Assembly: GCA_041489155.1 (NCBI GenBank)
Contig: JBGPQP010000001.1
Span: forward strand, 1-64,000
Direction of reading: 5' to 3'
DNA length: 64,000 bases
DNA from: Candidatus Aenigmatarchaeota archaeon
GTDB taxonomy: Archaea > Aenigmatarchaeota > Aenigmatarchaeia > QMZP01 > QMZT01
The notes under the pieces were generated by a model. That model was not told the origin of the DNA. It saw only the letters and a list, made by a program, of their open reading frames with translations, and did not search any database. Shown here piece by piece: positions 40,913-60,761 of this stretch. A program made the translations under genes and the position numbers. The number at the start of each line of letters is the position of its first letter. Position 1 is the stretch's first letter.

Positions 40913-40920
40913 TTTAAATA
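40913..40920 (+). promoter_or_regulatory. TATA box of the SRP RNA gene
   Basis: TTTAAATA ending 21 nt before the GC-rich RNA start. Confidence 0.6.
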
Positions 40921-40940: not shown

Positions 40941-41255
40941 GCAGGGGGCCTCCAACTGCGGGGCTAGGCCTACCGCACCTTCGGGTGGCAAACGGTCTTC
41001 ATGGCCGGTTGTAGTTTACGGGTGGCTTTGCGAGGACTGCAAGCCCAGTCCTGCCAACTGAGAAGCCTTGTCCTGCAGGATCATCTTCATAGTGAACCGG
41101 GTCAGGGTCGGAAAGTTTCGCACGTTCCGCGTGCGTGCCCCGAAAGACAGCAGCCCTAAACCGTGTTGGTGGTGCTTGCAGGGTTACAGGGTGGAGAAGG
41201 CGGACCGGATAACTTCCAGCTTTTCGTAAAAGTCTAACGTTAACACGCCTCCTGC
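40941..41255 (+). ncRNA. ffs: Signal recognition particle RNA with insertion in helix 8
   Basis: GAACCGGGTCAGGGTC...GACAGCAGCCCTAA SRP54-binding helix; helix-5 motifs GAAGCCTTGTCC and GGGTTACAGGGTGGAG; terminal stem 40941-40949/41247-41255. Confidence 0.85.
41114..41145 (+). other. Candidate BHB-type intron (32 nt) in SRP RNA
   Basis: TCGG/CCGA 4-bp helix with AAA and AAG bulges; removal gives GTC-GGAA-GAC. Confidence 0.7.
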
Positions 41256-41323
41256 TCTTTGTTATATTTCCGTAAACAAGCAGCAATTCTCGGATTTTTT
41301 ATAGGCGATGACAATATTTTAAT

Positions 41324-52362: not shown

Positions 52363-52455
52363 GTTTATAGATTTATCTTCGAAAAGTTATAAATCCATAT
52401 TGTTTCGATTATGCGGCGGCCTGAATTGCAAATTCAAGTCGTGATAAATTAATTA

Positions 52456-52569
52456 CGGACCTGGGGGGATTCGAACCCCCGACCTTTAGCTTAGGAGGCT
52501 ACCGCTCTATTGTCGACCGAAGCAGACTATGTCTGCTTACTACGAAGTTTCCAACTGAGCTACAGGTCC
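52456..52569 (-). tRNA. tRNA-Arg(CCU) with 40-nt D-loop intron (52510-52549)
   Basis: Acceptor GGACCTG/CAGGTCC, D stem GCTC/GAGC, anticodon loop CTCCTAA, T arm GGGGG-TTCGAAT-CCCCC; 74 nt after splicing, no encoded CCA. Confidence 0.92.
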
Positions 52570-52591
52570 ATGGCTGCCATGATGCTTTATT

Positions 52592-59354: not shown

Positions 59355-60761
59355 TTATCCTTTGCATACGCCAACAGGCACCGCTCTTGCAACTTTGAGC
59401 GAGATGCCGATGCCGTGCACGCTTTCTATCACGTCGTCGACGTTTTTGTAGGCATCAGGCGCTTCCTCAGCTAAGACCATGGGATGGGTTGACTGCGCAA
59501 TTATGCCCTTCCTAGCAAGGTCTTCCTTGACCTTGCCGCCCCAGAACCTCTTTATGGCATCATTCCTCGACATCGCTCTTCCTGCACCGTGCACGGTCGA
59601 GCCGAACGCCTTTTCCATCGATTTCTCGGTTCCCTTGAGCAGATAGCTTGAAGTGCCCATGGTACCGGCAATAAGCACCGGATCGCCGGGAAAGCTCCTT
59701 GTCGAGCCTTTACGGTGCACATAAACCTTGCGCTTCTTTTCCTCGATCTTGTGCTCCTCAACTTTCACGACGTTATGACAGAGGCCGTAAACCGTATGCA
59801 TATCCATCGCCTCCCAATTCTTATGAAAAACTTTTTCAAACGTCTCGCGAATCCACTGGGTCATCACCAAACGGTTTGTAAAGGAATAATTCACGGCGCA
59901 TTTCATGGCTGAAAAATAATCCAGGCCTTCCGGCGATTTCGCAGGCGCGCAGGCGAGCTGCCTGTCAGGAAGCCATATCTTGTATTTGTCGACCGCTTCC
60001 TCCTGAATTTTTAGGTAATCTGTCGCCACTTGGTGACCAAGACCGCGCGAACCGCAGTGAAGCATTATCAGTACCTGATCCTGATTTCTAATGCCCCATT
60101 TTTTTGCAGTTTCTGCGTCGTAAATATCAGTGACCCTCTGCACTTCAAGGAAATGGTTTCCTGCACCCAGCGTACCGAGCTGCTGAAGGCCACGCTGCCT
60201 TGCAAGAGGCGAAACCTTTTTCGGGTCCCCGCCGTTCATGCATCCCTTCTCTTCCATGTGTTCCTTGTCATCGGCGATGCCATAACCGTTCTCTATTGCC
60301 CAGTTCACGCCGCGCGTCAGGACCTGATCAAGCTGGTCGCTCGTCAGCTTAAGCGTGCCCTTCGCCCCGACGCCACAGGGTATCTTTTTGAAAAGCGATG
60401 ATATGAGCTCGTTTAGCTTTGGTTTCAGTTCGCTGTAAGTCAGATTGGTCCTTATCGAATTGACGCCGCAGTTGATGTCAAAGCCACATAGGCCGGACGA
60501 TATTATGCCGTCCTCGAAATCAAAAGCGCTCACCGCTCCCATCGGCAGGCCGTATCCCCAGTGCATGTCCGGCAGGCCGATAACAGGCTCTATCACGCCG
60601 GGCAGGCAGGCGACATTCGTAAGCTGTTCTACAGCCGCGTTTTCAAGACCATCAATCACCTTTTTGTTGCCTATGATCTTCGCCTTGACGTTCATCCTTG
60701 GTCTAACGTTTTTTTCCAGTTCCCATTCGTAAGGCGAAATCTGCTTCAGTTTTTCTTTCAT
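59355..60761 (-). CDS. rtcB: RNA-splicing ligase RtcB
   Basis: PDMHWGYG, DINCG, GNHFLE, HRKG, HGAGR, EEAPDAYK. Confidence 0.96.
   Translation of the reverse strand: MKEKLKQISPYEWELEKNVRPRMNVKAKIIGNKKVIDGLENAAVEQLTNVACLPGVIEPVIGLPDMHWGYGLPMGAVSAFDFEDGIISSGLCGFDINCGVNSIRTNLTYSELKPKLNELISSLFKKIPCGVGAKGTLKLTSDQLDQVLTRGVNWAIENGYGIADDKEHMEEKGCMNGGDPKKVSPLARQRGLQQLGTLGAGNHFLEVQRVTDIYDAETAKKWGIRNQDQVLIMLHCGSRGLGHQVATDYLKIQEEAVDKYKIWLPDRQLACAPAKSPEGLDYFSAMKCAVNYSFTNRLVMTQWIRETFEKVFHKNWEAMDMHTVYGLCHNVVKVEEHKIEEKKRKVYVHRKGSTRSFPGDPVLIAGTMGTSSYLLKGTEKSMEKAFGSTVHGAGRAMSRNDAIKRFWGGKVKEDLARKGIIAQSTHPMVLAEEAPDAYKNVDDVIESVHGIGISLKVARAVPVGVCKG

Follow-up and report, generated by a model that had tools for sequence, protein, structure and literature searches.

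A putative bulge-helix-bulge intron in the helix-8 loop of an SRP RNA gene from Aenigmatarchaeota

The SRP RNA locus

The window analysed here, a 64-kb stretch of DNA from an aenigmatarchaeal genome (Aenigmatarchaeota, DPANN; 1.13 Mb, 39 contigs, 89.65% complete), carries a gene for the signal recognition particle (SRP) RNA that is interrupted in the apical loop of helix 8. The interrupting segment, positions 41114–41145, is with a probability of about 0.85 a relaxed archaeal bulge-helix-bulge (BHB), or tRNA-type, intron. Its host is the sole SRP RNA gene detected, a search of all 39 contigs having returned one match, that in the window. The features of the locus, together with the genes for the two splicing enzymes, are collected in Table 1.

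Table 1 Coordinates and basis of the features discussed
Feature	Position	Strand	Basis
TATA-box-like element (archaeal) TTTAAATA, ~25 nt upstream of the RNA start	40913–40920	+	Read from the sequence; role suggested by position only
SRP RNA gene (precursor, 313 nt)	40942–41254	+	RF01857 match over model positions 1–317, 80.3 bits, E 3.4e-18
Exon 1, ending in GGGUCGGAA	40942–41113	+	BHB rule and intronless G002–G004; boundary may slide left by up to 2 nt with the product unchanged
CAGG, 5′ side of the SRP54-binding symmetric loop, helix 8	41103–41106	+	Rfam alignment; conserved in relatives
Central BHB helix, 5′ strand UCGG (exonic)	41108–41111	+	Pairs with 41140–41143; paired in 16 of 16 aligned carriers and in the centroid fold
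5′ bulge AAA	41112–41114	+	Geometry; predicted cut after 41113
BHB-type intron (putative), 32 nt	41114–41145	+	Presence or absence among relatives as an exact 32-nt block
Inner arm (h′) of the putative intron	41115–41139	+	G41115–C41139, 3×3 pyrimidine-rich internal loop, 6-bp hairpin; hairpin covaries
Central BHB helix, 3′ strand CCGA (intronic)	41140–41143	+	Pairs with 41108–41111
3′ bulge AAG	41144–41146	+	Geometry; predicted cut after 41145
Exon 2, starting with GACAGCAGCC	41146–41254	+	BHB rule and comparison with intronless G002–G004
AGCA, 3′ side of the SRP54-binding symmetric loop, helix 8	41149–41152	+	Rfam alignment; conserved in relatives
rtcB, RNA-splicing ligase gene, uninterrupted	59358–60626	−	Pfam RtcB 1–426 of 426, E 1.4e-155; 478-aa frame, no stops
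EndA, 396 aa	Contig C7 38508–39695 (locus L042 859–2046)		Pfam tRNA_int_endo_N and two tRNA_int_endo stretches

Matched from end to end by the gene is the Rfam model of archaeal SRP RNA (RF01857, Archaea_SRP; Infernal), collinearly over positions 1–317, with 33 nt inserted opposite a single model position, the insertion falling precisely at the apical helix-8 loop. The match lies below the gathering score of the family (96.5 bits) and was detected only under an E-value threshold; with Rfam gathering thresholds, no RNA family is matched anywhere in the 64-kb window. The shortfall in score coincides with the insert and with 40 model positions that remain unmatched. As inserts of this kind drop SRP RNA genes below the Rfam threshold, annotation pipelines will call the gene missing in these lineages.

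Both sides of the SRP54-binding loop of helix 8 are present, and SRP54 itself is encoded in the genome, its M domain being found on contig C19 (116 bits). The 40 skipped model positions lie between helix 5 and helix 8 (41060–41095 in the window), are skipped in the whole order, and probably correspond to helix 6; SRP RNAs of the order measure ~273 nt against the 317 positions of the model. SRP19 (Pfam PF01922) was found in none of 41 genomes by a search that also missed it in Sulfolobus, one of the controls. SRP in this lineage may be minimal, consisting of no more than SRP54 and RNA. Beyond the 3′ end of the gene comes a T-rich run, whose role, like that of the upstream TATA-box-like element, is suggested by position only. 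The strand opposite the SRP RNA gene has a 95-aa, TTG-started open frame lying wholly over the gene (40999–41286, minus strand), which is most likely spurious.

Geometry of the insert

The insert and the exon ends that flank it can be folded into a BHB motif. The central helix is exactly 4 bp long and consists of four Watson–Crick pairs, one strand exonic and the other intronic. On the 3′ side of each helix strand lies a bulge of 3 nt, which puts the two bulges on opposite strands, and this placement has the handedness of a true bulge-helix-bulge motif, as judged by the canonical tRNA 37/38 case. Archaeal splicing endonucleases cut after the second nucleotide of each bulge. Within the insert, CGCACG (41119–41124) pairs with CGTGCG (41130–41135) to form the 6-bp hairpin of the inner arm. 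In the centroid of the folding ensemble the BHB is present with an additional closing pair, G41107–C41148, by which the 3′ bulge grows to 4 nt. A search of the genome for the insert or its hairpin found no other copy.

An earlier, sequence-only reading of this DNA had placed the insert in the helix-8 tetraloop of SRP RNA, named the strings TCGG, CCGA, AAA, AAG and CGCACG/CGTGCG with their coordinates, described the exon-side helix as imperfect, and given GTC-GGAA-GAC as the product of removing 41114–41145. All of these strings are present in the sequence, the Rfam alignment puts the insertion at that very site, the exon-side helix is indeed imperfect, and the product equals the tip of helix 8 in intronless congeners.

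The flanking helices h and h′ of a strict hBHBh′ motif, of at least 2 bp each, are lacking here. On its outer side the motif meets the non-Watson–Crick SRP54-binding loop, and it is thus of a relaxed, HBh′-like kind. Relaxed BHB motifs are reported (PMC5829648) to require an (αβ)2 or an ε2 enzyme.

Presence and absence among close relatives

Exactly one SRP RNA match was obtained from each of 41 relatives, all seven carriers of the insert included; 31 of these matches pass the RF01857 gathering threshold and 10 fall below it. Of four other genomes of the same genus, three (G002, G003 and G004) have genes of 281 nt, that is, 313 minus 32, reading GGGTCAGGGTCGGAAGACAGCAG, and at the tip of helix 8 they show GTC-GGAA-GAC, the predicted spliced product; the fourth, G001, has a 32-nt insert at the same place. 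Homologous inserts of 31–34 nt occur in G001 and, from three other genera of the family, in G009, G012, G013, G017 and G021. The insert is absent as an exact 32-nt block from G002, G003, G004, G005 and G022, all of which have a tip identical to the predicted product, so that removal of the insert restores the uninterrupted RNA. Among the genomes without the insert, G014, G018 and G022 are congeners of the carriers from the other genera.

Owing to an AA ambiguity at the ends of the insert, three cut pairs, and only three, reproduce the intronless sequence of G002–G004. The one in BHB register, after 41113 and 41145, is that proposed in the sequence-only reading. Retained in all seven carriers of the family are the complete central helix (four of four pairs), the bulges AAA and AAG, and the first inner pair, and conservation of the insert, with covariation, extends over no fewer than four genera.

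RF01857 scores of genes with and without the insert serve as natural proxies for the effect of its removal. In the genus of the window, intronless genes score 100.9–108 bits versus 80.3 and 99.0 bits with the intron; G009, which has two inserts, scores 159.5 bits versus 161.5 and 153.8 bits for its intronless congeners. These values suggest that absence of the intron would bring only a modest gain in score.

Read and assembly evidence

The insert is not an assembly error. It is present in four DNA sources, namely X1, which is possibly the source run, X3, X4, and the metagenome contig L132. In X3, which comes from another sample and another study, two overlapping contigs cover the insert without differences, and the insert-bearing contigs from X4 and L132 are 98% and 99% identical to the window. 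At an identity of at least 98% the insert is found in all four sources; at 80–87% both states occur.

A signal in RNA came from one run only, the metatranscriptome X19, as a single 206-nt contig lying inside the gene with 10 differences (~95% identical). This contig skips 41112–41143 (32 nt, with a slide of 2 nt) and so equals the predicted spliced product, in which GGGUCGGAA is joined to GACAGCAG (41113/41146). The variant signature of the contig has no match among 25 DNA loci and 11 species representatives.

Of the checks proposed along with the sequence-only reading, three fall in its favour: relatives differ within the genus by exactly 32 nt, no uninterrupted second copy of the gene was found in the 89.65% of the genome that is assembled, and the assembly is backed by several DNA sources. 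For another, a search of RNA for the spliced junction, the junction present in the X19 contig of a close relative is suggestive only.

Covariation in the insert

An alignment (A1) of inserts at the tip of helix 8 comprises 16 distinct carriers, 10 of which came from pattern scans of genome and metagenome collections. In this set, 97.8% of cells of the BHB-plus-hairpin structure are paired, as against at most 55% in slid controls. Five pairs show changes on both sides, all of them within the intron hairpin, and the covariation score of 0.192 compares with 0.093 ± 0.013 in shuffles, none of 500 reaching it. The apical loops of the hairpins differ between carriers and none is GNRA; a retained insert would offer no substitute for the tetraloop.

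Left out of the alignment was the metagenome SRP RNA at L122 (257–317, minus strand), which has the same helix-8 5′ strand and a different insert, GAGCAG...CCCGAGT, that misfits the cut rule and is possibly an intron displaced by 1 or 2 nt.

Inserts across the order and the phylum

An SRP RNA match was obtained from 83 of the 91 genomes of the order. Aligned were 61 genes, those of the 41 relatives and 20 more, 12 of which were picked for length and 8 of which are of ordinary length. Counting inserts of at least 15 nt, and dropping as an end effect the 17 nt with which the G071 match terminates 3′, 25 of the aligned genes hold 30 inserts at four sites: the tip of helix 8 (13 genes), just after AGCAGCCNUAA (9), the Alu domain (6) and the 5′ strand of helix 5 (2). 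Two inserts per gene are found in G009, G031, G033, G035 and G060. In many cases the best BHB candidate matches the alignment gap exactly in length and has an exon junction identical to the sequence of an intronless relative, as exemplified by an insert of G009, whose junction GGGTTTTTAG^TATAATGAAC equals the sequence of such a relative. Example loci for inserts at the three sites other than the helix-8 tip are L007 (G009), L038 (G033), L040 (G031), L041 (G035), L056 (G060), L052 (G041) and L054 (G048).

As a control, the assumed intron length was slid and the central helix sought within 3 nt of the alignment boundary. A complete four-pair helix was found for 21 of the 30 inserts at the true length and for 0–15 at the other 24 offsets, the count of 15, at offset +9, corresponding to the geometry of the outer exon–exon helix. 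With one representative per insert family the figures are 11 of 19 at the true length versus 0–9 elsewhere. These counts are descriptive, since kin are not independent.

Of 151 genomes sampled from the phylum, 142 gave an SRP RNA match, 21 of the matches being at least 300 nt long (counted by eye). Inserts at the tip of helix 8 occur also in four genomes of other orders (G104, G173, G205 and G193). The 17 tip carriers examined span at least six families and several orders, with inserts of 18–86 nt, and each of the 17 has a cut pair, in BHB register, whose use brings back a 3-bp stem, a GRRA loop and the following AGCAGC. The central helix has four of four pairs in 13 of these carriers and three of four in the other 4. 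The restored exon stems covary (GTC/GAC, GAC/GTC, TGC/GCA, TCA/TGA, CAC/GTG, CCA/TGG, CCC/GGG and ATC/GAT). The putative intron of the window belongs to a pattern of such SRP RNA introns that runs through the Aenigmatarchaeota lineage.

Uninterrupted tips were tallied from 39 ten-nucleotide helix-8 tips of the order, every one of which has a 4-nt loop. The loop is GGAA in 32 tips, TGAC in 6 and TGGC in 1; genera with UGAC or UGGC in place of the GNRA/GRRA tetraloop are g8, g15, g32 and g4.

Splicing enzymes and tRNA introns

The splicing endonuclease EndA is encoded as a single chain of 396 aa with N-terminal, catalytic and C-terminal units. Residues 12–396 align to chain residues 14–387 of PDB 4fz2 (E 6e-110), and Y241, H255, K286 and K161, in numbers hand-counted from the alignment, align to Y236, H251, K282 and K161 of that structure. 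In the ARMAN-2 ε2 enzyme, Y236, H251 and K282 form the catalytic triad and K161 lies in the specificity loop (PMC3488258). With this chain organization, the triad and the specificity-loop lysine in place, EndA is assigned to the ε2 type, which is of broad specificity, and is predicted to form a homodimer that cleaves relaxed BHB motifs. A full-length ε2-type EndA is encoded in 40 of the 41 relatives; it was not found in G005, a genome that is 83% complete. According to a 2018 paper (PMC5829648), the only archaea in which the ε2 type had been seen were Candidatus Micrarchaeum and a relative, Mancarchaeum. In ten genomes of the order outside the family of the window (relatives G023–G040) there is a second, short EndA-like open frame of 184–247 aa, with 27–39% identity to the catalytic unit.

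The genes for both enzymes that the sequence-only reading had invoked are thus present, the RtcB frame being intact and EndA of full length. With its intron option, ARAGORN predicts 30 tRNA genes in the genome, 19 of them with introns; some of these calls are certainly imprecise, and the proportion indicates that the tRNA-splicing machinery is heavily used. By default ARAGORN finds no tRNA in the 64-kb window; with the intron option it calls a tRNA-Arg(CCT) with a 41-nt insertion (52455–52570, minus strand). At the boundaries given by ARAGORN this tRNA scored poorly in a BHB check, and the true positions of its intron are probably different.

Proposed maturation of the RNA

In the proposed precursor, U41108–G41111 of the exon, comprising the end of the helix-8 stem and the two G of the future GGAA, would pair with the 3′-terminal CCGA of the intron. 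This pairing would expose two bulges, AAA and AAG, one on either strand and both 3′ of the helix strand to which they belong, the inner side being closed by a G–C pair and the covarying hairpin and the outer side running into the SRP54-binding loop. Cuts by the ε2-type endonuclease are predicted after A41113 and A41145, and RtcB is predicted to join the exons into GUC-GGAA-GAC and probably also to circularize the 32-nt intron. The 4-nt helix-8 loop that all uninterrupted SRP RNAs of the order have in common would then exist only in the spliced RNA. Cleavage, ligation and a dependence of SRP function on both are predicted from comparison of sequences; on these grounds, production of a functional SRP most likely requires the cell's tRNA-splicing enzymes.

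A wider proposal, which we put forward tentatively and at somewhat less than even odds, is that SRP RNA is a regular and obligatory substrate of the tRNA-splicing machinery in Aenigmatarchaeota. It builds on the number of insertion sites (at least four), the occurrence of up to two introns per gene, and the share of long matches in the phylum (21 of 142 reaching 300 nt). On this proposal the tip of helix 8 would have been colonized repeatedly, in at least six families, because the end of the stem and the GG of GGAA already provide one of the two strands of a BHB. Maturation would then be gated by splicing: the precursor could bind SRP54, with the receptor-docking loop missing until EndA and RtcB have acted.

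Weighing the intron and its alternatives

Several observations weigh against an intron at 41114–41145. Its outer helix is weak, a G-A mismatch being followed by one G–C pair, and the inner arm has a single pair before the 3×3 internal loop. In the structure of minimum free energy the mature GUC/GAC stem is formed, the BHB appearing in the centroid only, and the local fold is not stabler than shuffled sequences (z −0.26; 74 of 200 fold as well). An ad hoc BHB score of 12 falls in the middle of the range of −0.5 to 20 obtained for the tRNA introns called by ARAGORN in the same genome. The central helix is invariant among carriers and so draws no support from covariation, and in 10 of the 16 aligned sequences its 5′ strand, which is exonic, was fixed by the 20-base search pattern. 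The X19 contig derives from a ~95%-identical relative, not from the organism of the window, and an RNA library may contain DNA; intronless alleles exist as DNA in relatives (an X4 contig at 89% identity and G022 at 86.8%), for which reason the contig is only suggestive of splicing. Finally, the UGAC and UGGC loops of some genera indicate that the sequence of the loop is not absolutely constrained in this group. A 4-bp helix in one register is, taken alone, weak evidence, and thermodynamics alone is insufficient for the case; it is the comparative data that carry the weight.

Three other explanations were considered. The insert might be an expansion of helix 8 that is never removed, the SRP working with a longer, branched tip. 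In its favour, helix 6 appears to be missing in this RNA (40 model positions unmatched) and SRP19 was found in 0 of 41 genomes, so that a known partner of the helix-8 loop may be lacking; some genera, too, tolerate non-GNRA loops. A retained expansion, however, has no need of a 4-bp helix and two 3-nt bulges in precisely the register that restores the stem and a GRRA loop, and all 17 carriers examined keep them. Insert length varies between 18 and 86 nt, the interiors are unrelated, and the apical loops are variable and non-GNRA. Each of the 39 ten-nucleotide tips of the order has a 4-nt loop. Close congeners lack the insert precisely, and an intronless RNA contig exists at 95% identity. We consider this explanation unlikely.

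The gene might instead be a disrupted or decaying copy, for instance one hit by a small mobile element with target-site duplication, while a functional copy resides in the unassembled part of the genome. That explanation draws on the completeness of 89.65%, on an Rfam score under the gathering threshold, and on the sequence GAAAG at both ends of the insert (41111–41115 and 41142–41146), which can be read as a 5-nt duplication. The two copies of GAAAG, however, are 31 nt apart, as against an indel of 32 nt, and removal of one copy would leave a 5-nt loop, GGAAA, that is seen in no relative; a target-site duplication was rejected as off by one nucleotide. A single SRP RNA match was obtained per genome in all 41, carriers included, the insert is maintained with covariation across at least four genera and has no other copy in the genome, and the exons are fully conserved. 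Decay is on this evidence very improbable.

An endonuclease acting at another BHB-like motif, CGGG 41098–41101 with CCCG 41139–41142, would cut after 41103 and 41144 and take out 41 nt; this motif, too, has a complete central helix, with an ad hoc score that is equal or higher in several carriers, but its use would remove the conserved CAGG of the SRP54-binding loop and give a product that equals no relative, the intronless relatives and both intronless contigs fitting a 32-nt removal only, and it was rejected as having next to no chance of being correct.

Comparison with known systems

BHB introns are textbook features of archaeal tRNA genes and are known in rRNA and in one mRNA, that of cbf5. 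For the tRNA introns, background is given in PMC3239211, PMC5829648 and PMC3488258. The putative SRP RNA intron is like these introns in its 4-bp helix, in its two opposite 3-nt bulges with predicted cuts after the second bulge nucleotide, in the presence of genes for EndA and RtcB, in its shortness (32 nt, with a hairpin of its own) and in its varying presence among close relatives. It is unlike them in its host, an SRP RNA, and in its position, the apical helix-8 loop: the exonic strand of its central helix is made up of the end of the helix-8 stem and the first two bases of the loop, and the place of an outer helix is taken by the non-canonical SRP54-binding loop, which renders the motif relaxed.

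The endonuclease resembles the ε2 EndA of ARMAN-2 (Candidatus Micrarchaeum acidiphilum; PDB 4fz2; PMC3488258) in being a single chain that keeps the triad and Lys161. Unlike the ARMAN-2 enzyme, that of this genome comes from another phylum, Aenigmatarchaeota, and its activity and dimeric state are predictions only.

If the SRP RNA does need internal splicing, an essential and universally conserved non-coding RNA joins the substrates of EndA and RtcB, and protein targeting is tied to the tRNA-splicing machinery in genome-reduced archaea. In the full-text literature searched, to which subscription-only papers do not belong, no linear intron in an SRP RNA gene is reported. The sequence-only reading had held that BHB processing of SRP RNA was known only from the permuted RNA of Thermoproteus, and the literature searches agree. 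The circular RNAs associated with SRP RNA that are reported in Haloferax and Sulfolobus (PMC12558985) are not introns. The mechanism is of a known kind; the host gene and the position appear to be undescribed.

Closest to the present case is the permuted SRP RNA of Thermoproteus tenax and T. uzoniensis, which matures, according to PMC4731332, through a BHB, the splicing endonuclease and presumably RtcB, as is predicted here, in a lineage likewise rich in relaxed tRNA introns. Unlike the circular RNA of Thermoproteus, the window gene is collinear, with model positions 1–317 in order, and would lose an internal piece of 32 nt to give a linear product. An ancestral SRP RNA 'with simple BHB introns' was suggested by Plagens et al. 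(2015, eLife, PMC4731332), and an intron such as that proposed here would provide the linear stage so far missing from the path to the permuted Thermoproteus SRP RNA.

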